Positions 28,845 through 44,766 are shown, counted from the stretch's first letter. The stretch: DNA of 64,000 nucleotides from a virus (IMGVR_UViG_3300003324_000363:17571-81570), one strand, 5' to 3'. Made by a program: numbers and translations. Notes: generated by a model not told the origin, from the letters alone.

Positions 28845-29092
28845 CTTGAAATTCCACCAGTGTCTCTATTCAACATTTCCATAAATTTTGTCTTGGTGTT
28901 TTTTAGTAATTCTTCAAGCTGCATTGCTTCCTCGTTGTTGACATAATCTATATCTAGCACATTGCAAAATTTACGCATTATGAAATCTATATCTTCAGCT
29001 TTCATGTTAGTCTTGAGCAATTCATTCATGGCAGTTAGTGCTCCGAATCCATACCCAATCATAAATCCACGTTCTAAGGTGTTTTCAGTCAT
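28841..29092 (-). CDS. Hypothetical protein, 83 aa
   Basis: ORF. Confidence 0.4.
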   Translation of the reverse strand: MTENTLERGFMIGYGFGALTAMNELLKTNMKAEDIDFIMRKFCNVLDIDYVNNEEAMQLEELLKNTKTKFMEMLNRDTGGISR

Positions 29093-30185
29093 CGTCTTTC
29101 TTTTCCTCTCCTATTCCACCTTTGCCAATTGAAATCTTGACATCAGAGTATGGATGGTTTGGTGAGTCAACTATTTTTATAACCCGGTTTATTCCTGCCT
29201 TTCGTATGTAGATTCTATATGTGCTTGAATGTGCAACCACGTTGCCGCCAGTTGGCTTTATTGGATCGCCAAACATTACATCAGGACTTGCCATTACTTG
29301 ATTTGTAAATAGCACAAGTACGCCATATACATGGGCAATGTTTGTTAGGTGGTGCAGCAGCTTTTCCAGTCTATTCTGTCTGTCATACAATGTGCCACGA
29401 CCTGAAAACTCGGCTCTGTGTGCTGCAATTATACTATCAATAATCAGCATCTTTGTACCATATTCTGATACCCATTTGCCTAGCTGTTTTACTGTAAGCT
29501 CTAGATTGCTTGCATTAAGTATTCTATTGACGTATATCTTTCCTAGTGTTTCTTTTGCATCCATCCCATTTGCTTCTGCAATTTCAACAATTCTCTCTGG
29601 TCTAAATGTACCTTCTGTGTCTAGAAAGATTACAGAATTGCTACCTAGACCGCCTTGCTCTACTGGCTTTAGTGCACGTACTGCCAAACTATGTGCAACT
29701 TGTGATTTGCCAGAGCCAAATTCGCCATATATTTCATAGGTAGAACCTACTTCAAACCCACCTTGCAGCAAAGTATCAAACTTTTCTGAACCAGTTTTCA
29801 GCCTAAGTAAGCTGTTCCTTCTTTCATATTCTGCTGTAGCTGGCACAAATGACTTGCCAATGATTTCTTTTTCTCTAAGCCAGTCTTGTGCTTGCAGAAT
29901 TAACTGCCCGGCTGCTTCACGTTTCAAGTTAACATTATTTATCAAGTCTTCTGGATTGATAACAGCAAGATCAGGAATAGTTTCAACACCCATTACTTTT
30001 AGCTTCTTTACTACAGTTGGTGATATTTCAGGCAATGCCTTTACACTCAATTCTTTCAAATCTGTAGCTGTAGCTTCTATCCTTTCCTCTTCTACCTTTA
30101 CCTGTTCAACTTCTTTCTCTTCAACAACGGCACGTTTTGTATATTTTCGTTTTACTCTACCTTTAGGCAACGGAACATACAACAA
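29085..30185 (-). CDS. radA: RadA/Rad51-type recombinase. N-terminal helix-hairpin-helix domain plus RecA core.
   Basis: Walker A GEFGSGKSQ, then DTEGTFRPER, Walker-B LIIDSI and an N-terminal LKVMGVETIPDLAV HhH region. There is no in-frame ATG near the N-terminus. The listed start is TTG. Confidence 0.8.
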   Translation of the reverse strand: MLYVPLPKGRVKRKYTKRAVVEEKEVEQVKVEEERIEATATDLKELSVKALPEISPTVVKKLKVMGVETIPDLAVINPEDLINNVNLKREAAGQLILQAQDWLREKEIIGKSFVPATAEYERRNSLLRLKTGSEKFDTLLQGGFEVGSTYEIYGEFGSGKSQVAHSLAVRALKPVEQGGLGSNSVIFLDTEGTFRPERIVEIAEANGMDAKETLGKIYVNRILNASNLELTVKQLGKWVSEYGTKMLIIDSIIAAHRAEFSGRGTLYDRQNRLEKLLHHLTNIAHVYGVLVLFTNQVMASPDVMFGDPIKPTGGNVVAHSSTYRIYIRKAGINRVIKIVDSPNHPYSDVKISIGKGGIGEEKKDDD

Positions 30186-30226
30186 TGTTTTAGTATATAA
30201 ATATATTTAACTTTATAGTTAGAAGA

Positions 30227-30568
30227 TTACTTGTTGCATTTACAGTGATAGAATCCACATTCCCAACAAGCTGTGATTTTCTTCTGGCAATCATCACAAT
30301 ATGTTGTACAACGTGCCAATGCCTGCTCCATTGCATTTGGATTATGCTTTGTTAAACTATCTTCTAGCTTTTTTGAGAATCTTATAATTTGTGGAATTAT
30401 AGTAAATTCTTCAGGCTTGTCTAATTCTGCTATTCCTATAGTAGTCATAACTTTACCTAACCTAGCTTTGTGTTGATATGCTTCCAAGTTAGCTAGAGTA
30501 GAAAAAACACCATGAATTGCCCAAGCACCTTCATGGTTTTCATCACAGAGAAGGTATAGTTTTGTCAT
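30227..30568 (-). CDS. Cys-rich protein with a C-terminal CDDCQKKITACWECGFYHCKC cluster. The track start is GTG, so I adjusted to the ATG.
   Basis: ORF. ATGA overlap with the upstream mini-ORF. Confidence 0.45.
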   Translation of the reverse strand: MTKLYLLCDENHEGAWAIHGVFSTLANLEAYQHKARLGKVMTTIGIAELDKPEEFTIIPQIIRFSKKLEDSLTKHNPNAMEQALARCTTYCDDCQKKITACWECGFYHCKCNK

Positions 30569-30693
30569 TTTTTGCACTTACCACATATTTGTTCTCTTGG
30601 CATTTCACACCATGTAAACCATGGATTAGTCCATTCTCTTTTACAAGATGGGCAAAAATGATATAATGTGTTACCTTCATAGTCTTCACACAT
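30565..30693 (-). CDS. Small zinc-ribbon protein, 42 aa (MCEDYEGNTLYHFCPSCKREW...CGKCKK)
   Basis: Read from the sequence. Confidence 0.35.
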   Translation of the reverse strand: MCEDYEGNTLYHFCPSCKREWTNPWFTWCEMPREQICGKCKK

Positions 30694-30697
30694 ATTT

Positions 30698-31198
30698 CTA
30701 TACCTTTTCCCATTTATCCTCGATTTCTTTACGCACCCACAGGTTTTTCTTCAACTGTTTGCCAATTTCATAAATAGACATGTCCTCTTCATTATCATTT
30801 AGATTCCAAATTAGTTCATCTATTTGAAATCCTACATCATAAGCAAATGGCTTCTCAGTTAGCAACGGAGAGCTGAACATATACCTCATCTCTTTATCTG
30901 TAAAGCCATACTGTCTTACAACGTCATCTTCATCTATGTTGTCTGCTTCATGTTGGGTAAGTCCTGCAAACATGTTTTTTCTGCATCCAAGCCAGCCGAC
31001 AGCACAATATCCTAATACATTGCGCTTGTCGTCAGCCACCGTAGCAGCAACCTTATCCAATTTAATTAATTGGTGTGTTATTTTATTTACTTTGGCTTTC
31101 TTTGATTCCATTAAAGCATCTGTCACTATGTTTATTTTCTTACGCAGTGAGTGTTTTTGTTTCAATGTTAGCTTGCTCATTTTTATGCCACCACACAC
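30698..31198 (-). CDS. Cys-rich protein. Distant member of the 20901-22999 paralog family.
   Basis: CAVGWLGCRKNMFAG, like CVVGRLGC in 9596..9967. Confidence 0.5.
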   Translation of the reverse strand: MCGGIKMSKLTLKQKHSLRKKINIVTDALMESKKAKVNKITHQLIKLDKVAATVADDKRNVLGYCAVGWLGCRKNMFAGLTQHEADNIDEDDVVRQYGFTDKEMRYMFSSPLLTEKPFAYDVGFQIDELIWNLNDNEEDMSIYEIGKQLKKNLWVRKEIEDKWEKV

Positions 31199-31617
31199 TG
31201 ATAGTAGTCGTATGTTGATAGATTCTCGTATCCTACACAGCTAAATGTATAGACTTTTCCAGTTTGTATCTTGCTAAACTCAATGTCGATGTTTGTGTTT
31301 AGAAAGTGTGTTTCACGCAATTGTATTACTCTATCATTGTGAGTGATAATATCTTTGCCAGACACCAAGTAGTATGTCACCTTGTTTTCTGGGTCAACCC
31401 ATGTCTTTGTCACATTCATCTTGATGGTAGTTGGCTTTATGTCTGTGCTTACCCAATGTGTTAGTGCCCAATAGATGCCAAATGCTATTGCAGCAACTAT
31501 ACCTATGGCGATTATTTTTCCTATCAATTTGGTATCTGTGCTCCTTCTTGTAAGCTTTTCAAGTCTAGTAAGAATGGTGCGTTTCCACTCATAACAACAG
31601 GCAACTTCCCGTCCCAA
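31183..31617 (-). CDS. NfeD-like membrane protein (one transmembrane helix plus a C-terminal beta domain), partner of the SPFH protein. The start is uncertain and probably lies downstream of 31524.
   Basis: A transmembrane helix IIAIGIVAAIAFGIYWAL is followed by a ~90-aa beta-rich domain. It sits immediately after the SPFH gene. The first 31 codons overlap the SPFH C-terminus. Confidence 0.4.
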   Translation of the reverse strand: MGREVACCYEWKRTILTRLEKLTRRSTDTKLIGKIIAIGIVAAIAFGIYWALTHWVSTDIKPTTIKMNVTKTWVDPENKVTYYLVSGKDIITHNDRVIQLRETHFLNTNIDIEFSKIQTGKVYTFSCVGYENLSTYDYYQCVVA

Positions 31618-32435
31618 CGCTGCACTTCTAGGTAATGGACGTATTCTGGACTTTGCTTTAATTGTTCGTTGATCAACTTGATTGACTCTGCCTGTCCCTG
31701 TGCTTGAGCTATTGATGCATCTCTTTGACCATTGGCTGTTGCTACGGCTTGCTGTGCTTCAAATTCTACCTGCTTTAACTTGTTTTGTGCTTGTAATGCA
31801 TTCTGCTCTGCTGTTACTTTAGCTTCAATAGCTTGATTGAATTGGTCACTAAAGTCAAAATGTGTGATAAGCACTGAATCAATTATGATGCCTCTATATG
31901 ACAAATCATTAGTCAGGGTGCTTTGTATTGCATCTTTTACTTGCTCTCTTTTTGTAATAAGTTCATCTGCATTGAACTTGGCAGTATTTTGTTTTGTAGC
32001 TTCCTGTATTGCAGGAGCAATAAGCACTGATTCATAGCCTGTTCCTACATCATGGTGTAACTTTGGTGCTTGACTTCCATCAATATGATAGTTGATTGTA
32101 ATTTCTGTTTGAACTGTCTGCAAGTCATTGCTAGCTGATGATGAATTAGCAGATATTTTTTGTACTTTTGTGTTATAGATGTGAACTTCATCTTGAATTG
32201 GTGTTACCTGATGAATTCCACTTCCTAATGGCTGACAATAAATAGGTTCATTTGTCTTATCGTCTTTGCCACAAATTGGAACATTGCCCCATTGAGTAAC
32301 AACTCCAACTTCACCTGTACCTACACTTCTAATTGTTGAAAATGACACAGCTACAATGGCGATTACTACCACCACAGCAATGCCTAAAATTACAAATTTG
32401 GGAATATGAAAACTGCCAGAATCCCTTTTACTCAC
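31524..32435 (-). CDS. SPFH/band-7 (stomatin/prohibitin/HflC-like) membrane protein
   Basis: N-terminal transmembrane helix, then GEVGVVTQWGNV, AKFNADELITKREQV and the Ala/Gln-rich coiled coil AIEAKVTAEQNALQAQNKLKQVEFEAQQAV typical of SPFH domains. Confidence 0.7.
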   Translation of the reverse strand: MSKRDSGSFHIPKFVILGIAVVVVIAIVAVSFSTIRSVGTGEVGVVTQWGNVPICGKDDKTNEPIYCQPLGSGIHQVTPIQDEVHIYNTKVQKISANSSSASNDLQTVQTEITINYHIDGSQAPKLHHDVGTGYESVLIAPAIQEATKQNTAKFNADELITKREQVKDAIQSTLTNDLSYRGIIIDSVLITHFDFSDQFNQAIEAKVTAEQNALQAQNKLKQVEFEAQQAVATANGQRDASIAQAQGQAESIKLINEQLKQSPEYVHYLEVQRWDGKLPVVMSGNAPFLLDLKSLQEGAQIPN

Positions 32436-32755
32436 TTCTGTTGCTGCTCCATTGCTTTTGTGGGATTGTATTCGTCAACTCTTGTTGTAATTTTGTACCA
32501 GTGATCGTTGTGTTTGTACACAAATGCACTTGTCTTTTTGTTGCTTGCAGAGCCATAGCCGCCAACTCTTTCACCTAGTCTGCTTCTAAGCTTGTCTGTT
32601 TGATATTGAGCAATCATTAGATTTCCAATGATGTTTTCTAGTTCTAAGTCACGATCATCCATATCTGCTAGAAAACTTTTGTCAACACCCATTTTCACAA
32701 TATCGTCTTGGGAAAGCTCCTCTGGTTGTCTTTTTGCTGTTACTTTTGTTGGCAT
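32432..32755 (-). CDS. Hypothetical protein, 107 aa
   Basis: ORF. Confidence 0.45.
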   Translation of the reverse strand: MPTKVTAKRQPEELSQDDIVKMGVDKSFLADMDDRDLELENIIGNLMIAQYQTDKLRSRLGERVGGYGSASNKKTSAFVYKHNDHWYKITTRVDEYNPTKAMEQQQK

Positions 32756-32961
32756 TATGGAAGACCTGTCCTTGGTGATACATCATGTGGTGCGTTTTCT
32801 ATGTACCGTTTGCCAGCAATGTCGTAATGAATTTCGTCAATGTAGTATGCTGTATCAGTTACAACACTACACATATTTGCCCCACAAACAGGAACGCCAC
32901 CCATACCATCTTCAGTTACCATATCTGTTTCTTGGTTTTGAACGAACATTTGTTTGCTCAT
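32755..32961 (-). CDS. Hypothetical protein, 68 aa
   Basis: ORF. An exact promoter 19-mer lies 25 nt upstream. Confidence 0.4.
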   Translation of the reverse strand: MSKQMFVQNQETDMVTEDGMGGVPVCGANMCSVVTDTAYYIDEIHYDIAGKRYIENAPHDVSPRTGLP

Positions 32962-33152: not shown

Positions 33153-33659
33153 TCAGCTTTCAAAAGGCATCCTCACTCTTGTTTTAGTAACAATGTGTTT
33201 GTCAACATCGTTGTAGGCATATAATTCTCCATTGTATGTGCATTTATAGTTGTAGCCTTTTGGTAATCCTGTAACATCATGGTAGAATTCACGTTGTTCA
33301 CGTTTAATGTAAACATTTTCTAGCTTGCCATCCAAGTTTTTTACCCTATCCCTAGTCTTGCCCATAAACCAAAATGCAAGAATTGAACGTCTAACAATAT
33401 ACCCACCTGCAAAGAATTCACAAACATCATTGCATCTTTCTACCTGTTCGGCAGGAACATGAGCTTCAGTTGATTGTGTACTTTTACATTCTATTGACAT
33501 CAATACTCTTACTGTATTATTTACAGCAACCAAATCTGGGAAATCCGTACCACTGCTACCAAGTCTTTTACAAGCATAGCCTTTTGTTTCATTGAATCGT
33601 TTTCTTAATTTGTATTCCCACGCATAGCCACGTTGCCTTCTGATATGCCCAACTCCCAT
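33153..33659 (-). CDS. hjc: Holliday-junction resolvase Hjc-like PD-(D/E)xK nuclease
   Basis: GYAWEYKLRKRF...RLGSSGTDFPDLVAVNN...IECKST matches the Hjc pattern (G.A.E..L...G..SG..PDLV, then E.K). Confidence 0.6.
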   Translation of the reverse strand: MGVGHIRRQRGYAWEYKLRKRFNETKGYACKRLGSSGTDFPDLVAVNNTVRVLMSIECKSTQSTEAHVPAEQVERCNDVCEFFAGGYIVRRSILAFWFMGKTRDRVKNLDGKLENVYIKREQREFYHDVTGLPKGYNYKCTYNGELYAYNDVDKHIVTKTRVRMPFES

Positions 33660-33665
33660 TATTTA

Positions 33666-33884
33666 TTACACTCTTACCAACTTTAGTAGCTTGACTGCAC
33701 GTTGTCTGCATCTTTTGTTTCTACCACGTGTTCGTAAGCTGAAATGGCAACATGGACAGTTTCTACCATCCCATGCCAAGAATATTTGGCAGACAGTGCA
33801 TCTTTTGTAGCCATCGGCATAATATCCAGTATGATAGCCTAGCTTTTTTGCTTTGTATCTAACACACAGCCCATTGCATGTCAT
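33666..33884 (-). CDS. Zinc-finger protein, 72 aa
   Basis: CNGLC...CTVC...CPCCH. Confidence 0.45.
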   Translation of the reverse strand: MTCNGLCVRYKAKKLGYHTGYYADGYKRCTVCQIFLAWDGRNCPCCHFSLRTRGRNKRCRQRAVKLLKLVRV

Positions 33885-35317
33885 GCCGTATCTCTCCTTT
33901 TGCTTAGAAATGGTGCTAGACGGTTCTTTGCAATTTGTATATAGTCTTTGTTTAGCTCTATTCCTACAAAATCTCTACCTAGCTTTGATGCAACTAAGCC
34001 AGCTGTACCTGCCCCAAAGAATGGGTCTAGCACAATTCCGGGCTTTGTATTTGCATTTTCACAATCACAATCTGGATAGTATTCTCCTACCTTTCTTATG
34101 ATTGTCTGTCTGAATTTTGACAAGTCTGAATTATGCAATCCTTTATTTGGATCGTCATCTGTACCACTCTTCATTGTTCCTGTATTCTTACCGGGTCTTG
34201 TGTTAACACGTTTTTCTTCCATGTTTCTTATCCATGGCTTGTTACATATTGTGCAAATTTTTATTGGACAGGTTGCCAGAATTGGTGTTACACATAATGC
34301 TTCTGGGAATACTGCCGTATGTTCCATGTGAAATGATTGTGTTGTTATATCCCACACGCATCTTTTGATCCGTCCAAACAGCACCGGTGCCCATGGCTTT
34401 CCAGAGTATGTTGGGTTTCCATACAATGCTGCTTTGTTTCCTCCAAACTTTGGCATTTTCTTTGCGTATGTTCCGTCAATACGCATTCTGTGTGGGTTGT
34501 TTTGTCTGTGTGGCTCTTTACTGTTTGCACCAGTGTTTGCCAATATTGATTTAATGATATTCCTTTTAGCATCTGATGGATTTTGTGCATTTGCTGATTT
34601 GTAATCTTTTGTTGCCTGTCCTTTGTAAGCTTTTTTTATTTCTTCTAATGTTATGGAACTGTATGGCTCATACTGTGTTTCAAAATAATAATCATCGTCC
34701 TTTACAAACCATAAGATGTATTCCCAATCACGTGTAAAGCCACGTTTATCACTCTGAGGCATTGAATTTGGCTTCTTCCAAATTATCTCACGTTTCAGCT
34801 TCCAACCACTAGCTTTCATTCTGAACCCAAGTGCTGCTGGGATTTGTTGCAAATCACCATCTATCATTTTATCACCCATGTTCACCCAGAAACTGCCTGA
34901 CTTTTTCAGCACTCTTCTGATTTCATCAAATATTTGCATCAAATGGTCAAGATACAAACATACTGTTGGTTCTTGCCCTAATTCGCCATACCAACCACCA
35001 CAGTCTAAGCAAGTGCTATATGAAATTTCAGTATCTGGAACTGGTTCTTGTTCACTATATTTCCCACTCTTTTGTGCATCACCACGACCAGAATGCAATT
35101 TTGTTATTTTCTTTGCTTGTGCAATGTGTGGACAATCTTCAAATTCATCCCACCATTGCAAATCTGTATGATAACTACGCATCCTGTAATAAGGCGGACT
35201 TGTTATGCACATGTCTATGGATTCAGATGGCAACTGCTTCAGGATAGCTAAAGAATGTCCTTGATAGATATGATTTCTAATTAAATCTTGATTGCTCTGT
35301 TGTATTTCTTTTTGCAT
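33881..35317 (-). CDS. DNA amino-methyltransferase (beta-class, N4-cytosine or N6-adenine) with a large Cys-containing insertion
   Basis: Motif IV CITSPPYY is N-terminal and motif I LDPFFGAGTAGLVASKLGRDFVGIELNKDY is C-terminal. That is the beta order. SPPY is most typical of N4C MTases. Confidence 0.75.
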   Translation of the reverse strand: MQKEIQQSNQDLIRNHIYQGHSLAILKQLPSESIDMCITSPPYYRMRSYHTDLQWWDEFEDCPHIAQAKKITKLHSGRGDAQKSGKYSEQEPVPDTEISYSTCLDCGGWYGELGQEPTVCLYLDHLMQIFDEIRRVLKKSGSFWVNMGDKMIDGDLQQIPAALGFRMKASGWKLKREIIWKKPNSMPQSDKRGFTRDWEYILWFVKDDDYYFETQYEPYSSITLEEIKKAYKGQATKDYKSANAQNPSDAKRNIIKSILANTGANSKEPHRQNNPHRMRIDGTYAKKMPKFGGNKAALYGNPTYSGKPWAPVLFGRIKRCVWDITTQSFHMEHTAVFPEALCVTPILATCPIKICTICNKPWIRNMEEKRVNTRPGKNTGTMKSGTDDDPNKGLHNSDLSKFRQTIIRKVGEYYPDCDCENANTKPGIVLDPFFGAGTAGLVASKLGRDFVGIELNKDYIQIAKNRLAPFLSKRRDTA

Positions 35318-35709
35318 TGAAATTCAATCTCCTCAATCACACCTTCATCGTCAGAAGCAGTCTCTTGTTTTGCTGATTTGTTAACGAGCCATTCTGTTGG
35401 TAGTCTTCCTGTCATAAGTCCATATTTTTCCCATAGTTGTGAATCACGAAAATCATCTTGTGCCTTAGCTTGTGTTGTTGTATGCCCTACATTGCCATCA
35501 ACTTCTAGCACTAATGTGCTATCAGCTTTCACTGCCAGCACATCAGCAATATATTCAATTTTTTGTACCGTTGGAAAAACATCAGGTACTTCAATTGCCG
35601 GCAGTTTGAATTCTAAAGATACAGACCAGCCTTTTTGCTCTAGAATATTTTTCAGTCGTAGTTTTCCAGTTAAGTGTTGGACACTTTCGCCACCATTGCC
35701 TCCTGCCAT
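35281..35709 (-). CDS. DUF559/Vsr-like PD-(D/E)xK endonuclease-domain protein
   Basis: IADVLAVKADSTLVLEVDGNVGHTT...DDFRD matches the DUF559 core (DF...LVIEVDG..H...D..R). Confidence 0.45.
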   Translation of the reverse strand: MAGGNGGESVQHLTGKLRLKNILEQKGWSVSLEFKLPAIEVPDVFPTVQKIEYIADVLAVKADSTLVLEVDGNVGHTTTQAKAQDDFRDSQLWEKYGLMTGRLPTEWLVNKSAKQETASDDEGVIEEIEFQCKKKYNRAIKI

Positions 35710-35761
35710 CCCACCGTCTTTCAGGAGAAAGCCAAGCTATAAATGTTACTATAGATTTTTA

Positions 35762-36025
35762 CTATACAGTTTTTGTATTAGCATCACTATATGAAACTAT
35801 AAAGCCATCACGTATTACAAGTTTGATCTTGTCTGTCTTTCTTGATAGCAAAAACAATTGTATGAAAGGTGTCAACTTGTTATCGAGAATAGCTTCATTT
35901 GTGGTTGTTGATAGATTGCTTGCAGCCACTGGCTTTAGCAAATCTTGCTTTTCAATAATTTCTTTAAGTTCGGCAATCTCTTCTAACAAGTCTTGACGAC
36001 TTCTCACATCATACGTTTCTGCCAT
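35762..36025 (-). CDS. Hypothetical protein. The track start is GTG, so I adjusted to the ATG (MAETYDV...).
   Basis: ORF. A 23-nt AT motif lies upstream. Confidence 0.35.
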   Translation of the reverse strand: MAETYDVRSRQDLLEEIAELKEIIEKQDLLKPVAASNLSTTTNEAILDNKLTPFIQLFLLSRKTDKIKLVIRDGFIVSYSDANTKTV

Positions 36026-36213
36026 AGATAGACCAATCCAGCTGGCAACTAATATACCCACTGTTACCCTAAAATTTTATATAAAATATCTTATATAAAA
36101 AATTATATATAGGATATTTGCATTGGTCTTTAGGAATAGTAATGAAGAAGCACATTGCCATTCCTGACATCCCAACCAGAGGTGTGGGATATTACTCCTG
36201 CACCTTTGGGTCT

Positions 36214-37026
36214 TTATCTCACGTTTAGCAGAATTTCATTCTCTCTACGTTTGTTGATACGGATTGCACTGCCCCACTTGCTTTGCAATCGTTTTATGCT
36301 TTCCTGCTCAATTTTAGCTGTTCTGTATTGCACAACTCCACCTTTGTTTGTATAATGTGCAAATTCAGCAAAAATATCATTGTTTCGTAATACTCCACCA
36401 TATTTTTGGATATGCTGTAGTGTATAATCATAGTCTTCCTTTGTCTTAAATTCTTCATCAAAGTAAAGTTCATTTGGCAACACCATTATGAAACTAGCTA
36501 TTATGAAGCTGGCAGTGTTGATTAGCTTTTTTGGATCAAAATAAAACAAATTTGTTGTAGGTGCAACACCTGCTAGCTTTATCATATTTTTCGTGTCTTT
36601 CAAACGAGTTCTCATCAATTCTACTGTAGATGCAAATGTTATGTCACATGTTGATTTTGTCAGTGTTTGTCCTTTTCCTAATGCTTCTGATGGTGCATCA
36701 AGCACTGTTGCAAGCTTTAGCTTTTTCAAGTCATCGTCAAGCATAACACATGGTATGTTTAATTTCCAAGCATCCTTTAATGCTTCATTTCTGCTATGGC
36801 ATAGCCCACTTGCAATCTTTATTTCTACATTTTCCAAATCATGCTTTGTGACTTCTGTTGTATAATCTCGAAGGTCTTGCTCATCAGCTACATACCATGT
36901 TGCACCACCATCTATTTTTTCATACATGTCTGCAACATTTTGAGGTCTTCTGTGGCTGACAATTGCTACAAAAGCATCTACATCTTTTCTATGCGTCATC
37001 TTCCTTTTCCTTTGTTCTGTCCTCAA
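36214..37026 (-). CDS. GT-A-fold glycosyltransferase-like protein, a candidate DNA glycosyltransferase
   Basis: An N-terminal beta-strand FVAIVSHRRPQN and a DxD motif CVMLDDD about 95 aa in. This layout is typical of GT2/GT-A enzymes. It sits next to a 2OG-Fe(II) dioxygenase. Confidence 0.45.
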   Translation of the reverse strand: MRTEQRKRKMTHRKDVDAFVAIVSHRRPQNVADMYEKIDGGATWYVADEQDLRDYTTEVTKHDLENVEIKIASGLCHSRNEALKDAWKLNIPCVMLDDDLKKLKLATVLDAPSEALGKGQTLTKSTCDITFASTVELMRTRLKDTKNMIKLAGVAPTTNLFYFDPKKLINTASFIIASFIMVLPNELYFDEEFKTKEDYDYTLQHIQKYGGVLRNNDIFAEFAHYTNKGGVVQYRTAKIEQESIKRLQSKWGSAIRINKRRENEILLNVR

Positions 37027-37969
37027 CTACTTCTTGGTTTATGGCACTTTCATATGGTATAACTTCACCTGCATCTAATCTACGTTTGACATTTTCCCCA
37101 ACTTTTCCAAACATTTTCATGACTTCTGGATTGTGTATGCCTCCCATTTTTGTAAGCTGCAATCTACGTTGTTCACGTTCTGTCTTTCGTTTTCTTATAC
37201 GTATGATTTCTTCATTGACTGTTTGGCATTTCCACATTTGTTTCAATGTATAGTAAACTATGGTGAATCTATAACCTTCTTTGCTAACTATTTTGAAAGG
37301 TGTGACACCATGCAGTATCTTTTGCCCATCAAAAAATAGCAAGCTGTGGTCAGCTATTTCCAATCCTATGTCATATGATGGTATAGAAAGATGCCCTCCC
37401 TTGCAATCTTTCTTGAATGCTACCATGTTGCTGTAAACATCATCAAAATTGCCAGCATCAAAGTGATACTTTAATGGGTTGTTCTTGTTAATGATTCCAG
37501 AAGTAAATGGTGTGCCTTCTATCACCCAATCTTTCTTTACTTTTTCATTTACAATGTCTTCATGTACTTTGAATATTTCTGGAGCATGAACCTTATACAA
37601 CTCTGTGCAAACCTTGCCAAATTCACATACTTCTGTATGAGTTTTTGGGTCTTCTCTTGCCAAGCTTACTGCACTGCAATAGTCTTTACGAATTGTTTCT
37701 CTAGGCATATAACCAAATATTCTGCTTGTTGTCCTAAGTCCCTGTGTTCTAAAATTGTAGCTGTATTTTATTTTAGCAATGTCTTCAACAAGTTCATGAT
37801 GGCTATCTGGCAAATTCAGATAGATTGCAATAAGTCTATCACCATCATAGATTTTGCATGGATAGTCTATGAATTGATGGTAGTCCTCATCAAGTGCCGT
37901 CCGTTTCTTATATTTAGCTAAATCTATTTCTCTATCTGTTACCCGTACTGTTTCAACCGTGTTGCTCAT
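36989..37969 (-). CDS. 2OG-Fe(II) dioxygenase-superfamily protein, possibly TET/JBP-like nucleic-acid base oxygenase
   Basis: HxD at KYHFDAGNF, a second His in ILHGVTP about 50 aa later, and an Arg in GYRFTIVYY about 10 aa after that. This is the spacing of the double-stranded beta-helix iron site. The DNA-modification context fits. Confidence 0.5.
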   Translation of the reverse strand: MSNTVETVRVTDREIDLAKYKKRTALDEDYHQFIDYPCKIYDGDRLIAIYLNLPDSHHELVEDIAKIKYSYNFRTQGLRTTSRIFGYMPRETIRKDYCSAVSLAREDPKTHTEVCEFGKVCTELYKVHAPEIFKVHEDIVNEKVKKDWVIEGTPFTSGIINKNNPLKYHFDAGNFDDVYSNMVAFKKDCKGGHLSIPSYDIGLEIADHSLLFFDGQKILHGVTPFKIVSKEGYRFTIVYYTLKQMWKCQTVNEEIIRIRKRKTEREQRRLQLTKMGGIHNPEVMKMFGKVGENVKRRLDAGEVIPYESAINQEVVEDRTKEKEDDA

Positions 37970-38591
37970 ATTTGTTCATCAGAAACAATACAGCATCTGT
38001 ATTTGACTCTAGTTTATTTTCTGCCATTATCTTTTCAAACTTTGTAAGCACTTCTTCATATTGCTCTGGCGTAAAATATAGGGTTATCTGTCTAACTGTC
38101 CCATGCAGATATGTATTCAATCTTGATTCTAATGGCGATGGATCTTTTGTAATCAGATTAGGAGAATCGGCATTGCCCATAAGAGCACGCATTGTTTCAA
38201 GTTCTGATTCATTTATACCAAGCAATGATTCCAATCTTGCAGCATCATTTTGCATGATAAGCTCCAACTCAGCAACATCCTTGTCAAGCTGGTGCTCACC
38301 ACGTAGCTTATTCATAGCCTGTCTTATGATTCTACGTTCAATATCATTTTGCACTTCGACTCTAACAACAGGTATGTTAGTTTCACCTTGTGCTTTCATA
38401 ATTAAAAATCTATGCTCACCATCAACAATAACATCATTCTGGTCAATAATTACTGGTTGTAAATAACCAAACTGTCTAATTGATTCTGCCAGTCCAGACA
38501 TCTGCTTGTCATTAAGCTGGTTTGGGTTGTCAGGGTCTAACTTTATGGTATTAACATCAACAATGTCAGTTTTATGGAATTTTATAGCCAT
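37953..38591 (-). CDS. ParB-like nuclease (ParB N-terminal/sulfiredoxin-fold) domain protein
   Basis: LQPVIIDQNDVIVDGEHRF matches the ParB box (L.P..V....ILIDGHHR). Confidence 0.55.
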   Translation of the reverse strand: MAIKFHKTDIVDVNTIKLDPDNPNQLNDKQMSGLAESIRQFGYLQPVIIDQNDVIVDGEHRFLIMKAQGETNIPVVRVEVQNDIERRIIRQAMNKLRGEHQLDKDVAELELIMQNDAARLESLLGINESELETMRALMGNADSPNLITKDPSPLESRLNTYLHGTVRQITLYFTPEQYEEVLTKFEKIMAENKLESNTDAVLFLMNKYEQHG

Positions 38592-38621
38592 CTGCTGATG
38601 GATGCTACAGAGAAGCTGTTA

Positions 38622-38924
38622 TTAAGGCTTGTGAAATACAGTTTCTTGCTCTGCAATTGAATTCAATGTTTCAATTGCCTCTACACCATAGTCTGTTATT
38701 CTCCAGACACCATCAACACATGTAGCCATTTTTTGAGATTTAGCATATTTCAAATATTCTTTGATTTGAGGATGACTTAAACGGGCAGCAAACATGATGT
38801 TTGTCATAAGTATGCCGTTAGCTCCAGAGTTTTTGATATGTTGCAGTACATCACGTAATATTACGTGTCTGCTTCTATATTTTTTCCCCTTATTATTTCT
38901 ACCAATAGATTTAGCATCTGCCAC
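38622..38924 (-). CDS. Winged-helix DNA-binding protein, 100 aa
   Basis: Basic N-terminus, then a recognition-helix-like segment and a wing. Confidence 0.4.
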   Translation of the reverse strand: MADAKSIGRNNKGKKYRSRHVILRDVLQHIKNSGANGILMTNIMFAARLSHPQIKEYLKYAKSQKMATCVDGVWRITDYGVEAIETLNSIAEQETVFHKP

Positions 38925-39102: not shown

Positions 39103-39381
39103 TTATGGGGACAAATGTATGTTAATTTTTGCCTTCCCATGTGATGTTAGTATGTAAACTGCCTTTATTCTTTCATCTTTGCCTCTTGATGTTACATTTC
39201 TTGGTGGTGGAGCTGCCATGACAGCATTTTCATTGATTAGCTGTTCCAATACTTGTTTTGCTTTTGGCTCGCCAAGTCTAGCTTTCAACATTATGTGGTT
39301 CATATTTACTGCGTCATAGCCTATTGCCGATAAAACAGCAGACACGATTGTTTCAGAATCACGCTTCTTGACCTTTGACAT
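39103..39381 (-). CDS. Winged-helix DNA-binding protein, 92 aa
   Basis: Helix-turn-helix-like ETIVSAVLSAIGYDAVNMNHIMLKARLG. Confidence 0.4.
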   Translation of the reverse strand: MSKVKKRDSETIVSAVLSAIGYDAVNMNHIMLKARLGEPKAKQVLEQLINENAVMAAPPPRNVTSRGKDERIKAVYILTSHGKAKINIHLSP

Positions 39382-39682
39382 CCCTGTGCTCCCTCTGCAT
39401 AATCAAACTTTGTACCATGCCTTGTATTCTGTCCATGACTCCTTCCTCATACATGATTGCTGCTAGAATGTGTTTGCATCTGTAGCCTTCCTTCATTGCC
39501 CGGTACACAAAATCAGGACATGTGCACCCAGCTTTAAACTTGTCCTTGCCATCAACCATTACATCGTAGCCACGTATTTTGTAAAAGCCAGTTATTTTCT
39601 CGTTTGGAAAAACTGCACCCTGATAGTACAGTTCGTTTGCTTTTTCTAGTCTATCCCCTCGTTCTTCCCATGCAACTTGCAT
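39359..39682 (-). CDS. SWIM zinc-finger protein
   Basis: CTCPDF...YRCKHILAA is the SWIM CxCxnCxH signature. Confidence 0.55.
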   Translation of the reverse strand: MQVAWEERGDRLEKANELYYQGAVFPNEKITGFYKIRGYDVMVDGKDKFKAGCTCPDFVYRAMKEGYRCKHILAAIMYEEGVMDRIQGMVQSLIMQREHRDVKGQEA

Positions 39683-39771
39683 TTTGACATCCCATATCCA
39701 TTTTTCAGTAGTAAGAGTATTATATAAATATATTTTAGTTAATTCATATTAAGTTTTATATAAAATAGTTT

Positions 39772-41589
39772 TTAGCTCCAGAAATTGAGTGTAAGTTGAC
39801 CACGTGTTATGGCTCGTATATCCTTTCCCAGCAACTGGAGAATATCGCCAAATGCAGATTCAAATGTCTTCTCATACTCTTTTTTGTCCAAGTCATTAAA
39901 GCTGTTTACTTTAATTGCTACACCATTGTGGGTTTTCCAGTAATATACAACATCACCGGCACTGGCGTTTGCCATCTGCCCTAGCTTTTTGTTTTGGTTC
40001 TCACTTTCATAATCTTCCCAATTTCTTGTAAGCTTGGTTGAATAGAATAGCTGGTTCAAGCTTACATTTCCTGCTCTAAATTCATCGTATGTTGCCTGTA
40101 ACAGTGTTGATGGGTCTAAGCCATTTGCATAGTCACGTGTAAATTGAGCAAATGCTTCATTAATCCATTTTGGTCTATCGTTCTTTTCTGCCTCTATGCC
40201 AGCTACAACAATATCACCATCTTCTTTCACCCCTATGTAGTGTTTTTTGCCTGTAATCATAAATCTTGCATAAGTTTTGTCATGCTCCAATTCCAAGCCT
40301 AGTTTTGCCTTTACATCTTCGATTATCTTACGTGCAGTTTCAGCATCAGAATTAGGGAACATGATAGAATCAGTGTCGCCATATATTACAGTGCAGCCAT
40401 GTGTTTTTGCTATTTCAATAATCTGCATGATATAGTGGCGTTCAAATGCTATTATACTGTCATAACATCTTACATCTGAATATTCATAGTATGGATTGTT
40501 GAATAAACCTGTTTTTGCATTCATTACAATTTTCAAACCATCTGCCATGACTTTATTGCCATTCCTTTTATGCACCATTCTTTCCTCACGCATTTCTGTA
40601 AACTTGGTAGTTACTGCACCTTTCTTCTGTTTGCATGACCATAGCAATGGTTTGTTTGGTACTTTTGAAGATTCTAAATCCCTGCAACATTCACAGCACA
40701 TTGCATCTGGGCTTATGTTATGCTTTATGATTATTGATGGATACAAGCTTGCAACGTCAAGCACTACAACATTTCTATAGTCACCAACAACTGGCTCTAG
40801 CACTATCGGCCCTTGTCGTTTCTTACGTTTTCCATGAGCTGCATCATTTGGCATTTCTGGTCTAAATTCAATAGGTGTTTCTGGCATTTTCATGTCACGC
40901 AGTATCTTTCGCCAGATTGAAGACATGCCAAAGTTACATATGGTTTGAATTGGAAGTCCTGTTTTATCTGCTAAAGCATACATTAATTTCATTAACCCAT
41001 AGTCACGTTTTGGCATCTTTGTTTTCTTGTCTATATCGCCAACCTGTGCCAGCTTGAATGTTAGTCTAGCATCGTTTAGACAGTATTCTTTCTGCTTTTC
41101 AACGGTCATTGATTCGGCAGTTGAACCTGTAATGCCTTCTGTCTTACCTTCACCTAGCAATGCTTTAGCTACACTTTGCAGTTTTTGATCTTTGTATCTC
41201 TTTTTGAAAATATAGTTTCTTACTACACCTTTATCAAATATCATAAACAGGTCAATATGTGTTCTTCCATGTACTGGCTCTGGAAGCATACGTTGTATCT
41301 TTCTAGGATTCACTATTGAACTTAGGTGATATTTTTGACACCTTTGGTGTAGCACATCAAAGTCTGACCCTTCACCAGTTGTATAGTAGCCAATGGTTAA
41401 TGGGTACTTCATTATTTTCTTGTTTATCTTTTCTAATAGTTCCTCTTCATCTGGGAAATCATCTAGATGGTAAACATCTTCATTGCCCATGTCGTCAACA
41501 AAAGCAGCACAATACAACTCCCCTGTTTTCTTCCATTCAAAGTCGAAAGCTGCATAGTTTTCAAAATTGTTAAAGCTAGACATTATCAT
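39772..41589 (-). CDS. polB: Family-B DNA polymerase. Start adjusted to MIMSSF... (the track start is 41715).
   Basis: Exo I FDFEW, Exo II YYTTGEGSDFDVL, Exo III YCLNDARL, motif A LDVASLYPSII, motif B KIVMNAKTG and motif C YGDTDS are all present. Confidence 0.9.
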   Translation of the reverse strand: MIMSSFNNFENYAAFDFEWKKTGELYCAAFVDDMGNEDVYHLDDFPDEEELLEKINKKIMKYPLTIGYYTTGEGSDFDVLHQRCQKYHLSSIVNPRKIQRMLPEPVHGRTHIDLFMIFDKGVVRNYIFKKRYKDQKLQSVAKALLGEGKTEGITGSTAESMTVEKQKEYCLNDARLTFKLAQVGDIDKKTKMPKRDYGLMKLMYALADKTGLPIQTICNFGMSSIWRKILRDMKMPETPIEFRPEMPNDAAHGKRKKRQGPIVLEPVVGDYRNVVVLDVASLYPSIIIKHNISPDAMCCECCRDLESSKVPNKPLLWSCKQKKGAVTTKFTEMREERMVHKRNGNKVMADGLKIVMNAKTGLFNNPYYEYSDVRCYDSIIAFERHYIMQIIEIAKTHGCTVIYGDTDSIMFPNSDAETARKIIEDVKAKLGLELEHDKTYARFMITGKKHYIGVKEDGDIVVAGIEAEKNDRPKWINEAFAQFTRDYANGLDPSTLLQATYDEFRAGNVSLNQLFYSTKLTRNWEDYESENQNKKLGQMANASAGDVVYYWKTHNGVAIKVNSFNDLDKKEYEKTFESAFGDILQLLGKDIRAITRGQLTLNFWS

Positions 41590-42691
41590 GCTCCTCCTGT
41601 TGGGATTTTCTGCCATATGCCAATGGATTTCTGATGCCTGCACAACCACTGTCTTCAAAGCACCATCCCAAGTTCTTGAGCTTGTCACAATTATTTGGAC
41701 TGTAGCCTTTATCAACTATAAAGTTTACCTGATAGTTTGTAACTGATTCCTTGTAATCAGGTGCATTCTTGAACATGTCGGCTATTTCATCAGCCGGCTT
41801 GCCTAGTTTGTTCATGTAGCTAACAAACAATATTCTTGCTGTATGTGGCACATTTTCACCTTTGCTAAATAAGTCCAGCACATGTTGGATGCATGGAGGA
41901 TATTTTTGTGGTACAAAGCTAGCTGTGCTAAACTGTATATTGTATTGCTCACTCAATAATTCAGCAGATTCAATTATTTGAAATGGCATCTTATTCATGG
42001 GCAATTGTAAGGAAGCAATACGGTTTACAAGCAGTTCTTCAATTTCATCTCTTGCAAAACGGATCAGCTCCTTTTCTGATAGTGAAACATAACCACCATG
42101 GACAACCTGATTTACTAGCTTCCAGTCCTTGCTATGGAATTTTACTGACCTTTTCAAGTATTCTGGAACACGTAGCAGGTATGCTAGTTTTGGCTGCCAT
42201 TCTTCACCATGTCTCAGTGCATTTTTCTTTTCAAATTCAATGATGTTTTTACAGTTCTCACAGTCATCAAAAATAGGTCGATGCTCTACTGCCATCTTTA
42301 AATCACGTCTTAGAATTTGTAATACAAACTCATGCATTGCTTTATCTCTAAGTTTAATGTGCTCTGTCAAGCTATCCAGTAAAAACTGCTCTGTTCGTTT
42401 GGCTATTGAAAGTGCAATCTTATGATAGAGTTTTGGATTGTTTGTTAATTTGCAAATTGATAGGATTATAATGTAAAGTTGCGCCTCTGTTTTTACATTT
42501 TCCAAGTTAGTATTGAATTCACTCTTTAGAGCAATATTGATTCGTGACATGGCTTTCTCTACCAGTGTTTCAATATTGGCAGCCTGCATTGTTTCCTCAA
42601 AAAATGAGTTTGGACTAGCAGGTTTTGCATCAGCTAGCCATGGGTATTTGGCTAGATCGTTTCCACCTGCTTCTATTATGCCAGTTTCCAT
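41576..42691 (-). CDS. priL: Archaeo-eukaryotic primase large subunit (PriL) with a C-terminal 4Fe-4S domain
   Basis: The C-terminal block YPPCIQHVL...KGYSPNNCDKL...WCFEDSGCAG parallels the eukaryotic/archaeal PriL FPPCM...KGYSY...C.K...GC iron-sulfur domain. Confidence 0.6.
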   Translation of the reverse strand: METGIIEAGGNDLAKYPWLADAKPASPNSFFEETMQAANIETLVEKAMSRINIALKSEFNTNLENVKTEAQLYIIILSICKLTNNPKLYHKIALSIAKRTEQFLLDSLTEHIKLRDKAMHEFVLQILRRDLKMAVEHRPIFDDCENCKNIIEFEKKNALRHGEEWQPKLAYLLRVPEYLKRSVKFHSKDWKLVNQVVHGGYVSLSEKELIRFARDEIEELLVNRIASLQLPMNKMPFQIIESAELLSEQYNIQFSTASFVPQKYPPCIQHVLDLFSKGENVPHTARILFVSYMNKLGKPADEIADMFKNAPDYKESVTNYQVNFIVDKGYSPNNCDKLKNLGWCFEDSGCAGIRNPLAYGRKSQQEEHDNV

Positions 42692-44766
42692 CCTTCCTCA
42701 CCTTCATAAGTGCCCCAATACATGAAATCGCCATCTTTTTTGTACTTTGCAAGAACTGATCTGGCATCTTCTTCTGTCCACCCATGATTTTCCATCAATC
42801 TTTGTCTTAGTTCTTTAGGAGTTGCAAAATATTCAGTACGTAATGTTCCGTCTTTTAGTGACTTGAATGCTGATCGTAAAATGTCTTCAGTAGATTGCTT
42901 TATCTTTACTTCTCTGGTTGGCATATCGCCATTGGCTATTGCTGGGTCTAGCTTTTGAGTTAGTGGGTCAAATGCTGTTATACGCATTGATGTGTCTAGC
43001 AGTTTTACAGCAACATCAACATCGACCATTTCAACTTCTGGCTTTTGTAAGTATCTAGCATGAGCTAATGCAAATCTAACTGCACTGTTGATGTATCTCG
43101 GAGTAATCAAGCCTTTCAGGTCTTCAACTTGCCTTTTCTTTTGATAGTATTCAACAATGCGTTGATAGATTTCAGGTGTTAGTTTTGGAATTGGCACATG
43201 TTTTGCTACATACATGATGTACTTTTTCATGGTTTTGAAGCCAAATCTTTCTTGTGTGTCATTCATGTATTCTTGCCAGTATTTGTCACTAAAGTTTTCA
43301 AGTACTCTTCGAGCCACCAATGCGTCAGTTTCTGGATTTGGTCTATCTAGTACAACAAAGATAGAGTCAAATCTTGTTATGAAACTAGGTGGCATGAATT
43401 TCAAATTCTTTTGTATGTCTTTTTGCTCATCCCAATATGGGAATACACTGTTGCAGGCAAATAGCCATGCACAATCTGATGGCAGTGTACCTTTCTCTGT
43501 TCCTCTTGCATATGAACAGGTTTTGTTTGACCCTATTTCATGCAGTCTTTGAAATATTTCTGGTGTGCTTTTATCAAACTCATCGCCAGCACTTATGCCT
43601 CTGTGACAGCTTGGGAAAAAACCGGGTGTTATCATAAATTGATTTGTATCTTTGTCTTTACTTGCTATAACTGTCAAACCTGATGGCGTACTTGTTGCAA
43701 ATGATGTGTAGGCTGAATTTGGTGCATATGATGCTGTTCTTAACAGCAAAGCTGTCTTGCCTGTTCCCGGTGTTCCTGCCAAAAGCAGGTTTATGCTAGT
43801 TGCATCAGAATGTGATGGGCTTTTGTTTAATGATTCTGAAAGCAAGTTTATGCTTGCACATTGTAAGATTAATGCTTCTTTTACATCTTCCATGCCAATT
43901 ACTTCTGGAGCAAATGATTTGACAGACTTCTCCCAAAAGTCAGGTTCTTTCGACATGCCGTTGCTGAATTTAGCTACATCGTCTGGTGTTAATTCATACT
44001 CTTCATTTTCATTTCCTGTATCTTCGATGTTGTTAGCCCATAGAACGTATGATGGTTGCTGCTTTTCTGTTGTTGGCATTTCAATTGTAAGATAGCCAAA
44101 TATGTCAATGCTTCTACCTGCATTTATTATTCTGTCACACAGGTCTTTGCCTTTTACCCATACTTTCAAATTCATTGGAGCTGTTGATGCTTTTACTGGC
44201 ATCAAAATTATTGTTCTGGTGTCTTCAACTTCCTGTTCAATTATTGCTGGGAACTTGTCTTTGCAGTTTATGCATTCTTTTGCAGGTCTAGCTTGCTCAA
44301 CATGTGATTGTGAAACTGTTATGCCGTCAAACCCACAGCCCATGCAGTGGTATGTCATTTTTCTTATCCATGGTGTGTTGCTTGTTATGGCACCTACTCT
44401 GCCATTTATTGTAACTAGCTTGCCGTTGTAAAACCCACCAATGTCTTTTAGCCCAATTCTACTGCCTGATATGTTGTGGAATCTTACTATTGGCTCGATA
44501 GCTGAATTGCCATAAATTTCGATTAGAATTAGTCTTACTGCATCAGTGAATGCTTTGTGTGCCAATGGAAAATTGTTTATGATCAAATTCAGTATTTTCT
44601 TGCCATTTTCACTTTCCATTAGATGTTTTCCATCAACAAACACAGTTCTGCTTTCTTGTGTCAGTCCTGATATTATATCTGAGTATATTTTGAAGGTATC
44701 TAGCTCATAACTATCAAGCCATTGCCTGATAGTTTCTACTGTCTTTCCTATTGTTGCTGTTGACAT
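42676..44766 (-). CDS. mcm: MCM replicative helicase
   Basis: N-terminal C4 zinc finger CMGCGFD...CINCKD. P-loop LLAGTPGTGKT. MCM Walker-B DEFDKS. MCM arginine-finger motif TRFDSIFVVLD. Confidence 0.85.
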   Translation of the reverse strand: MSTATIGKTVETIRQWLDSYELDTFKIYSDIISGLTQESRTVFVDGKHLMESENGKKILNLIINNFPLAHKAFTDAVRLILIEIYGNSAIEPIVRFHNISGSRIGLKDIGGFYNGKLVTINGRVGAITSNTPWIRKMTYHCMGCGFDGITVSQSHVEQARPAKECINCKDKFPAIIEQEVEDTRTIILMPVKASTAPMNLKVWVKGKDLCDRIINAGRSIDIFGYLTIEMPTTEKQQPSYVLWANNIEDTGNENEEYELTPDDVAKFSNGMSKEPDFWEKSVKSFAPEVIGMEDVKEALILQCASINLLSESLNKSPSHSDATSINLLLAGTPGTGKTALLLRTASYAPNSAYTSFATSTPSGLTVIASKDKDTNQFMITPGFFPSCHRGISAGDEFDKSTPEIFQRLHEIGSNKTCSYARGTEKGTLPSDCAWLFACNSVFPYWDEQKDIQKNLKFMPPSFITRFDSIFVVLDRPNPETDALVARRVLENFSDKYWQEYMNDTQERFGFKTMKKYIMYVAKHVPIPKLTPEIYQRIVEYYQKKRQVEDLKGLITPRYINSAVRFALAHARYLQKPEVEMVDVDVAVKLLDTSMRITAFDPLTQKLDPAIANGDMPTREVKIKQSTEDILRSAFKSLKDGTLRTEYFATPKELRQRLMENHGWTEEDARSVLAKYKKDGDFMYWGTYEGEEGWKLA

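Follow-up and report, generated by a model that had tools for sequence, protein, structure and literature searches.

An MCM helicase gene joined to a primase large subunit without its catalytic partner in a tailed virus of archaea

PriL, the large subunit of archaeal primase, is encoded almost exclusively on chromosomes (PMC5862659). Archaeal viruses and integrated elements recruit a host-type MCM helicase, sometimes together with a family B DNA polymerase, PolB (PMC4889955; PMC6563490). In the literature we found a viral PriL mentioned just once before, in JdFR1000234, a complete, myovirus-like archaeal virus of the oceanic basement with a PriL-domain protein and a divergent PolB; one sentence there names a “putative primase”, with no analysis of linkage to MCM, recurrence or the absence of the catalytic small subunit, PriS, and it is likened to the present case by description only (Nigro et al. 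2017, PMC5340873). As a rule a virus has either a complete primase, in many cases fused to a helicase, or no primase. Here we analyse 64,000 nucleotides of viral DNA (IMGVR_UViG_3300003324_000363:17571-81570), referred to as the window, with positions counted from its first letter; it is an internal part of a 99,684 bp JGI contig, the only one on record with its exact PriL, MCM and terminase proteins, and 35.7 kb of that contig lies beyond the two window ends. The window carries adjoining genes for MCM, PriL and PolB and no recognisable PriS. What is new is a virus module of host-type parts in which an orphan regulatory primase subunit is coupled to MCM.

The described viruses and elements that encode MCM (Halorubrum virus BJ1, HSTV-1, HFTV1, TPV1, an Altiarchaeum virus, and thaumarchaeal elements with MCM with or without PolB) resemble the window in having a helicase of host type. 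The five viruses differ from it in that they gave no tblastn match to the viral PriL, and their MCMs are less than 27% identical to that of the window. With the viral PriL or thaumarchaeal PriS as query, tblastn returned nothing from 50,697 virus records, and an MCM-PriL module is not described in the searchable papers on viruses of ammonia-oxidising archaea.

A preliminary description of this DNA had proposed an archaeo-eukaryotic gene set comprising MCM, PriL, PolB, RadA and Hjc, and all five genes were confirmed on the minus strand, in both position and motifs. The MCM replicative helicase (42676..44766, minus strand; 696 amino acids) consists of an OB/zinc-finger region, an AAA+ core and a lid, as judged from Pfam and structures. 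It matches PF00493 (E=1.7e-42) and, in the lid, PF17855 (E=1.6e-12); the OB domain PF17207 scores 22.7 bits, just under its cut-off of 24.8. The C4 zinc finger (CMGC141/CINC165), Walker A (GTPGTGKT331), DEFDKS395 and TRFDSIF464 are present, and the protein aligns with archaeal and eukaryotic MCM structures over its full length from residue 30. Hexameric 3′-5′ helicase activity is predicted. Its matches in the phage database were archaeal viruses only, again below 27% identity.

PriL, the non-catalytic primase large subunit (41576..42691, minus strand; 371 amino acids; PF04104, E=5e-17), starts within the end of the MCM gene. It has the PPC...KGYS...C..GC iron-sulfur (Fe-S) signature previously reported for it (PPC265, KGYS328, C335, C344, C350). 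Residues 6-365 align with cellular PriLs and the Fe-S cysteines C267, C335, C344 and C350 are invariant. The protein is 30-35% identical to cellular PriLs (mean 32.5%), compared with a mean of 58.7% among the cellular proteins. Scored against 78 Nitrososphaeria PriLs at positions conserved in at least 90% of them, the viral protein keeps 20 of 31 N-terminal and 44 of 71 C-terminal positions; by this measure the N-terminal and Fe-S domains are retained about equally. The nearest solved sequence relative is Sulfolobus PriL. An AlphaFold2 model (pLDDT 69.5) matches essentially only PriL structures, among them 1zt2_B/D, the PriL N-terminal domain with PriS (TM score 0.64-0.66 on the target), and 2dla, the corresponding domain from Pyrococcus; the Pfam profile for this domain, PF26466, gave no match at E<=0.01. 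The viral PriL is thus a complete large subunit, with a PriS-binding-type N-terminal domain and a 4Fe-4S C-terminal domain.

One feature sets this PriL apart from its cellular relatives. An insertion of about 30 residues (approximately residues 139-168) consists of the motif (F/Y)D-x-C-x-x-C (C144, C147) followed by about 25 residues, and is common to the PriLs of the window, of P0154 and of two of the related loci introduced below (L092 and L093), while being absent from cellular and other MCM-linked PriLs. Since a pair of cysteines is too few to bind a metal, further ligands may come from a partner. This clade-specific insertion is a candidate surface for contact with MCM.

PolB (39772..41589, minus strand, in an open reading frame (ORF) extending to 41715) is a PolB1-like enzyme of about 605 amino acids by Pfam and motifs. 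Translation probably begins at one of two ATG codons behind a GGAGG, at 41589 or 41583, yielding a protein of about 603-605 residues. It matches PF00136 (E=1.3e-25) and, in the exonuclease, the RNase_H_2 superfamily. The claim that all exonuclease and polymerase motifs are present holds for the translation: we found ExoI (DFE58), ExoII (SDFD), ExoIII (YCLND211), polymerase motifs A (DVASLYPS320) and C (YGDTDS445), KKHY490, and a motif B that is variant (KIVMNAKTG). The best solved relative is Sulfolobus PolB1 (1s5j, E=1.9e-42), and Thermococcales PolB was also matched. The N-terminal domain is missing: alignment begins at residue 250 of Sulfolobus PolB1 and residue 174 of Thermococcus PolB, and the viral protein starts about 15 residues ahead of Exo I.

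These three genes follow two short ones. The first encodes a 121-amino-acid protein (45143..45508, minus strand) found in the same position, at 40% identity, in L092; the second encodes a 126-amino-acid zinc-ribbon protein (44766..45146, minus strand) that abuts the MCM start and has a 44% identical homologue in L093. All five genes abut or overlap, the PriL start overlapping the MCM stop by 16 nt and the PolB start overlapping the PriL stop by 14 nt, and they probably form one operon. Neither this operon structure nor its recurrence elsewhere featured in the preliminary description.

The catalytic partner was sought by several routes. Pfam, searched partly on concatemers, gave no match to PF01896 or to a Prim-Pol family in any window ORF scanned, a set covering all ORFs of at least 45 amino acids but about 15 of up to 113 amino acids. 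PHROGs, searched with the 20 larger ORFs, gave no primase. Neither phmmer with two thaumarchaeal PriS sequences nor a custom hidden Markov model (HMM) built from 59 PriS sequences, which recovered cellular PriS controls at E=1e-125 to 1e-169, found a match in the window. No window ORF of at least 140 amino acids carries both motif I and motif II of archaeo-eukaryotic primases (AEP) in a regular-expression search. The earlier observation that no PriS adjoins PriL therefore extends to the window as a whole. It had also been said that such an arrangement would be unusual, and it is: PriL is followed by PriS at all 57 of the Nitrososphaeria genome loci with enough downstream sequence. The replisome complement is small, as described, with no profile match to PCNA, RFC, ligase, Fen1, RNase H, GINS or SSB/RPA among the window ORFs.

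The same arrangement recurs elsewhere. A search for MCM homologues returned cousins at 51%, 39%, 39% and 36% identity, and an exhaustive HMMER scan with the viral PriL gave 1,202 relatives. MCM followed by PriL without PriS was found in seven further viral or mobile-element lineages (L092, L093-95, L096/97, L098, L099, L101 and L102); no PriS was detected in the 84 kb they total, within 8-10 kb where the contig allows. Counting the window, the MCM and PriL genes overlap or abut in seven of eight lineages. L092 has the gene order of the window (MCM-PriL-PolB-SWIM-x-wHTH, the last a winged helix-turn-helix gene), with 51, 43 and 62% identity for MCM, PriL and PolB. In L093-95, tail genes are followed by MCM, PriL and a Cys-rich protein and, further on, by a methylase and RadA. 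The order is SF2 helicase-MCM-PriL-Cys-rich protein in L096/97, MCM-PriL-Cys-rich protein in L098, SF2 helicase-MCM-PriL-76 amino acids-Cys-rich protein in L099, SF2 helicase-MCM-150 amino acids-PriL in L101 (on a contig of 100,740 bp) and MCM-PriL in L102. Among the same PriL relatives, a cellular control (L100, a 339 kb contig) has PriL-PriS amid housekeeping genes. Tail proteins, methylase and RadA are common to L093 and the window, so at least part of the group consists of related tailed viruses.

Two other gene families accompany the module in some of these lineages. A Cys-rich family of about 200-240 amino acids with a B-box-like zinc-finger pattern comes directly after PriL in four (L093 13227-13898; L096 9305-9910; L098 2669-3343; L099 5940-6665, in the last behind the 76-amino-acid ORF). 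It was not found in the window or L092, where PolB holds that position. We considered it as a cryptic PriS, an idea that is unsupported: the protein is zinc-finger-like, lacks acidic catalytic motifs and does not occur in the window. Separately, an SF2 helicase (ResIII + Helicase_C_2) lies just ahead of MCM in L096 (3919-5781), L099 (615-2411) and L101 (3366-5330), with none in that place in the window or L092.

The remaining two genes of the set concern recombination. RadA/Rad51 recombinase (29085..30185, minus strand) was assigned from Pfam (PF08423, Rad51, E=1.8e-73) and structures, has Walker A GEFGSGKS154, and aligns full length with Pyrococcus furiosus RadA (1pzn, E=1.6e-67). The helix-hairpin-helix-type N-terminal domain attributed to it is present, residues 46-120 aligning with the N-terminal domains of 1pzn, 2bke and human RAD51. 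The annotated TTG start is probably too far upstream, as a promoter motif (described below) ends just 11 nt before it. The Hjc-type Holliday-junction resolvase (33153..33659, minus strand; 168 amino acids), identified from Pfam and structure, scores 37 bits against PF01870 (gathering cut-off 21.1); its catalytic E15, D42 and E57-x-K59 fall opposite PDIIAL/IEMKS in the alignment with Sulfolobus Hjc (4tkd), and it has about 80 extra C-terminal residues. With MCM matched in the phage database by archaeal viruses only, PolB nearest to Sulfolobus and Thermococcus enzymes and RadA nearest to RadA/Rad51 proteins, the archaeo-eukaryotic affinity proposed for the set is upheld. Between Hjc and RadA lies a gene for an SPFH/Band 7 protein (31524..32435, minus strand; 303 amino acids; Pfam, E=1.7e-29), together with an overlapping 144-amino-acid ORF (31183-32435 for the pair, minus strand); this membrane-associated gene is odd in that place and is probably not a replication gene.

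The genes around the module point to a virion. The N-terminal 411 amino acids of a large terminase subunit (TerL) are encoded at 2..1234 (minus strand; phrog_2, E=3e-19) in a gene that runs off the window start, and a second gene is truncated by the high end of the window; of the 1600 TerL relatives, part carry terminase annotation. At 55562..56882 (minus strand), Pfam gave a weak, below-cut-off match to a tail tube protein (21.6 bits) and a match to an HK97-gp10-like head-tail protein (29.5 bits). Neither an HK97-fold major capsid protein nor a portal was matched by Pfam or PHROGs among the candidate ORFs at 58-63 kb, and the genes for both may be in the contig beyond the window. Together the TerL, weak tail-tube and gp10-like matches support a head-tailed double-stranded DNA virus as the source of the window. 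It is gene-dense, with 104 of 139 greedily called ORFs on the minus strand, a GC content of 35-42% and negative GC skew throughout. Also in the virion module, a 282-amino-acid protein (60663-61511, minus strand) has about 15 degenerate S-[YF]-T-H-[KI]-Y-x-x-L repeats and no family match.

Its host is most likely a member of the Nitrososphaeria (Thaumarchaeota), on the basis of the nearest cellular PriLs and of TerL relatives. The former, at 30-35% identity, sit in TopoIB-PriL-PriS-GINS51-PolD neighbourhoods, and the best 80 of 281 genome PriL loci are all from Nitrososphaeria, in a scan whose patterns were themselves derived from such sequences. TerL offers evidence independent of PriL: among relatives at 40-50% identity are a copy carried by the Nitrososphaera viennensis chromosome (2.5 Mb) and several proteins of Nitrososphaeraceae metagenome-assembled genomes. 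An AT-rich archaeal host had been suggested; the DNA is moderately AT-rich, and the PriL and TerL relatives narrow that host to Nitrososphaeria. The window has no tRNA genes from which a host could be read. A neighbour-joining tree puts the viral PriLs together with other MCM-linked PriLs adjacent to Nitrososphaerales, with poor support. The virus itself has no close kin in the collections searched. The window DNA matched no known phage or archaeal virus (50,697 records), scans of IMG/VR with MCM, a PriL alignment and a viral-MCM alignment found no relatives, and metagenome contigs scanned with TerL gave distant relatives only (TerL identity 36-48%), with almost no other genes in common. An ecologically important lineage of ammonia-oxidising archaea gains a sizeable, previously unsampled virus clade, without IMG/VR or GenBank relatives.

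Our proposal for these genes, which we consider evenly balanced between right and wrong, is that they make up a minimal viral replisome, its PriL serving to tether PriS from the host to the helicase and polymerase of the virus. Viral MCM would unwind viral DNA, and viral PriL would capture host PriS to give a chimeric primase tethered to that MCM, from which primers would pass to viral PolB where PolB is present. Borrowing of host PriS is suggested because PriL is complete, its two domains are equally conserved, the catalytic partner is repeatedly absent and the translational coupling to MCM is conserved. In cells, GINS reportedly bridges primase and MCM, a finding attributed to Marinsek et al. 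in 2006; as the window has no GINS, we infer a direct MCM-PriL contact, alongside contacts of PriL with host PriS and with PolB. The PriL-PolB arrangement may function like a miniature Pol alpha-primase that bypasses the cellular GINS bridge. One study relates the PriS C-terminal domain to GINS B-domains (PMC2861644). RadA and Hjc could add recombination-dependent initiation and repair, and resolve branched concatemers before terminase packaging, by analogy with phage T4, which encodes the UvsX recombinase and gp49 resolvase for recombination-dependent replication.

A bolder formulation, which we hold tentatively and rate at somewhat below an even chance, is that viruses and mobile elements of Nitrososphaeria have evolved a helicase-primase of a new kind, in which MCM and the regulatory subunit are co-translated from overlapping genes and host PriS is stolen to form a hybrid primase on the helicase of the element. 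If true, this would be the first virus to encode only the non-catalytic primase subunit, and a natural coupling of MCM to primase without GINS, resembling a proto-Pol alpha-primase when PolB is attached.

Several observations weigh against borrowing by a conserved module. PriS could sit in the part of the contig beyond the window, and the cousin loci are likewise partial. Compatibility with host PriS is not assured, given the 30-35% identity of PriL and the change of 11 of 31 conserved N-terminal positions. Four lineages have a Cys-rich protein beside PriL in place of PolB, so a hand-off to PolB is not universal to the module. Across the eight lineages, pairwise identities of MCM and PriL do not co-vary (Mantel r=0.07, p=0.33), and joint inheritance of the two genes is therefore not demonstrated. 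Bootstrap values in the PriL tree are below 50%, a resolution too poor to place the viral clade precisely.

The preliminary description had offered two explanations for the lone PriL, a PriS outside the window or a subunit borrowed from the host. Recurrence of MCM-PriL without PriS in seven lineages favours borrowing, and the two are not finally separated. We regard it as unlikely that a viral PriS, or a different primase, is encoded in the 35.7 kb beyond the window, which would make the primase complete and viral and PriL no orphan. Genes do run off both ends of the window, which is internal to its contig, and precedents exist: HVTV-1 has an AEP primase (PMC4889955), and large archaeal tailed viruses can carry near-full replisomes, according to a report on Aoguangviridae (PMC10768690). 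However, given the invariable adjacency of PriL and PriS in the donor lineage, joint capture would be expected to keep the two together, and the whole replication, recombination and early-gene region lies inside the window without PriS. The seven other MCM-PriL lineages show none in their 84 kb, and the unseen part of the contig, flanked by TerL and virion genes, probably holds head morphogenesis genes.

A role for PriL outside priming is a doubtful alternative. PriL would then be a decoy that sequesters host PriS, which if true would shut down replication of the host chromosome, or a DNA-binding Fe-S accessory of MCM, with RadA D-loops priming synthesis. Recombination-primed replication is established for phage T4; RadA and Hjc are both present here, RadA is conserved in L093, and several lineages lack PolB beside PriL. 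Yet a pure decoy could do without the Fe-S domain and its primer-initiation residues, and these are as well conserved as the N-terminal domain; lagging-strand synthesis behind the helicase would still need a primase; and a productive complex is the better fit to the tight coupling of MCM, PriL and PolB in two lineages.

We think it improbable that a non-homologous or very divergent catalytic partner has escaped recognition nearby, as a small operon protein or a member of the Cys-rich family. Many ORFs could not be assigned to a family, MCM is preceded by two small conserved proteins, and the Cys-rich protein follows PriL in the four lineages named above. Those small proteins, however, are 121-161 amino acids long, shorter than any known AEP core; the Cys-rich family, missing from both the window and L092, is only zinc-finger-like and has no acidic catalytic triad; and AEP motifs I and II occur together in no ORF of at least 140 amino acids. 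Finally, an origin other than an archaeal virus, whether an archaeal cell, a large DNA virus of eukaryotes or a bacteriophage, is effectively refuted by the present evidence and keeps only a minute chance: eukaryotic homologues exist for all five proteins and the TET/JBP relatives in the virus database are all bacteriophage, but the window has TerL, tail-tube and gp10-like genes and a dense gene layout on one strand (the minus strand carries 104 of 139 ORFs), housekeeping genes are absent from the window, MCM matches archaeal viruses only, PriL and TerL have Nitrososphaeria relatives, and the promoters are of TATA type.

Those promoters share a 13-nt motif, AAATATATTTATA, which occurs 11 times in the window against 0.41 expected and is often extended to GTTAAATATATTTATATA. 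The copies are at 5171, 17866, 18418, 23028, 27344, 30196, 32988, 38962(+), 39723, 45991 and 47433; ten of the 11 are on the coding strand, all of these in intergenic gaps and typically about 32 nt before a start codon. The motif looks like a virus-specific promoter class of TATA/BRE (B recognition element) type with short leaders, and its enrichment agrees with the TATA-type promoters proposed before. One copy (39723..39735, minus strand), just past the PolB stop, opens the next transcription unit, and another (30196..30208, minus strand) is directly upstream of RadA; RadA and Hjc are each in a transcription unit separate from the MCM operon. Upstream of that operon, sequence inspection revealed a 493-nt AT-rich non-coding gap (45509..46003, minus strand) with TATA-like elements at about 45530-45595, TGTAA repeated five times in tandem, further repeats of TACTAC type, a number of inverted repeats and, at its far end, a consensus promoter copy (45991-46003) with no ORF behind it. 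The gap is a possible promoter, regulatory region or origin.

Downstream of PolB lie genes for a SWIM zinc-finger protein (39359..39682, minus strand; syntenic in L092), a 92-amino-acid wHTH-like protein (39103..39381, minus strand; weak HTH_45 match; conserved in L092 and L096) and a winged-helix HTH_45 protein (38622..38924, minus strand; syntenic in L092). Zinc-ribbon mini-proteins had been called abundant; they are present, but in modest number, 11 of 79 ORFs of up to 130 amino acids having at least two CxxC motifs. Elsewhere, four tandem paralogues of 133-157 amino acids (20901-22999, minus strand) share the pattern C-[AVI]-[LMV]-G-E...C-x-x-C...FG with a C-terminal H-x-x-E-x-H, as found by jackhmmer, and have looser look-alikes at 9596-9967, 21769-22131 and 30698-31198; none has a family match. 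A NAPRTase-family phosphoribosyltransferase (486 amino acids, E=2.4e-13) adjoins an SLOG/YspA-like protein at 23414-25263 (minus strand), a pair that may serve as an NAD-salvage auxiliary or in anti-defence.

Between the winged-helix gene and Hjc sits a DNA-modification cassette (33881-38591, minus strand) that had gone unmentioned. All its genes are on the minus strand: a ParB_N-domain protein (37953..38591; 212 amino acids; Pfam), which is a candidate activator of the adjacent enzyme; a TET/JBP-family 2-oxoglutarate-Fe(II) dioxygenase (36989..37969; 326 amino acids) whose HxD (H169, D171), H220 and R234 are intact and which continues at the C-terminus for about 75 residues past the part aligned with phage homologues; a TET-associated (TAGT-like) glycosyltransferase-like protein, below the Pfam threshold (36214..37026); a CoiA-like nuclease-domain protein (35281..35709; Pfam); and a DNA methyltransferase of the N4-C/N6-A class with an SPPY motif (33881..35317; 478 amino acids), conserved in L093 (46%) and L096 (33%). 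The 109 records with TET/JBP homologues in the virus database are all bacteriophages. L101 encodes a Tet_JBP protein 64% and a ParB 46% identical to those of the window; because the pair is conserved there, the modification system appears to be a shared trait of the virus group. That contig carries, downstream of MCM-PriL (12712-16944), two ParB_N-Tet_JBP pairs and then an ADDT-like (amino-acid:DNA transferase) gene. As there is no C5-methyltransferase to supply 5-methylcytosine, thymine is the likelier substrate. ParB-activated thymine dioxygenases have recently been demonstrated in bacteriophages (PMC13229309), and the cassette resembles those systems in its ParB_N-Tet_JBP gene order. These observations suggest that post-replicative hypermodification of thymine (or cytosine) by ParB-TET/JBP extends to archaeal viruses.

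Set beside known replication systems, the module combines familiar parts in an unfamiliar way. The viral PriL is a full-length homologue of the large subunit of cellular PriS-PriL, with its nearest relatives in the PriL-PriS-GINS51 operon of Nitrososphaeria. Unlike the cellular gene it has neither PriS nor GINS beside it, being preceded by MCM and followed by PolB, and its product has the CxxC insertion of about 30 residues. In PolpTN2 of pTN2 and the PrimPol-PV1 supergroup, a PriL-related module (helical Fe-S or PriCT) likewise serves the replication of mobile elements, but there it is fused to a catalytic AEP, whereas here a stand-alone, two-domain PriL of cellular type occurs with no AEP domain found (PMC3973330; PMC5862659). 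The pairing of a strand-exchange protein with a junction resolvase, in a tailed virus that would package from concatemers, recalls UvsX and gp49 of phage T4; Hjc is unrelated and RadA distantly related to those counterparts, and a similar role is suggested by the comparison.

An organisational parallel to the MCM-PriL-PolB locus is the eukaryotic Pol alpha-primase, a single primosome in which PriL bridges PriS and a family B polymerase. The coupling of PriL and PolB genes suggests a similar logic, and the PriL fold search returns Pol alpha-primase complexes (8fok, 5exr, 4bpx). In contrast to that enzyme, the virus has no B-subunit and no PriS of its own, and its PolB has an intact proofreading exonuclease while lacking the N-terminal domain. 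The likeness is one of analogy in organisation, not of shared descent of the complex. A conserved module that supplies the regulatory subunit only, joined to the helicase gene, implies takeover of a host enzyme by replacement of a partner subunit. It bears on how archaeal primase couples to MCM, on what PriL contributes alone, and on how PolB, PriL and PriS might come to form an assembly resembling the eukaryotic Pol alpha-primase.

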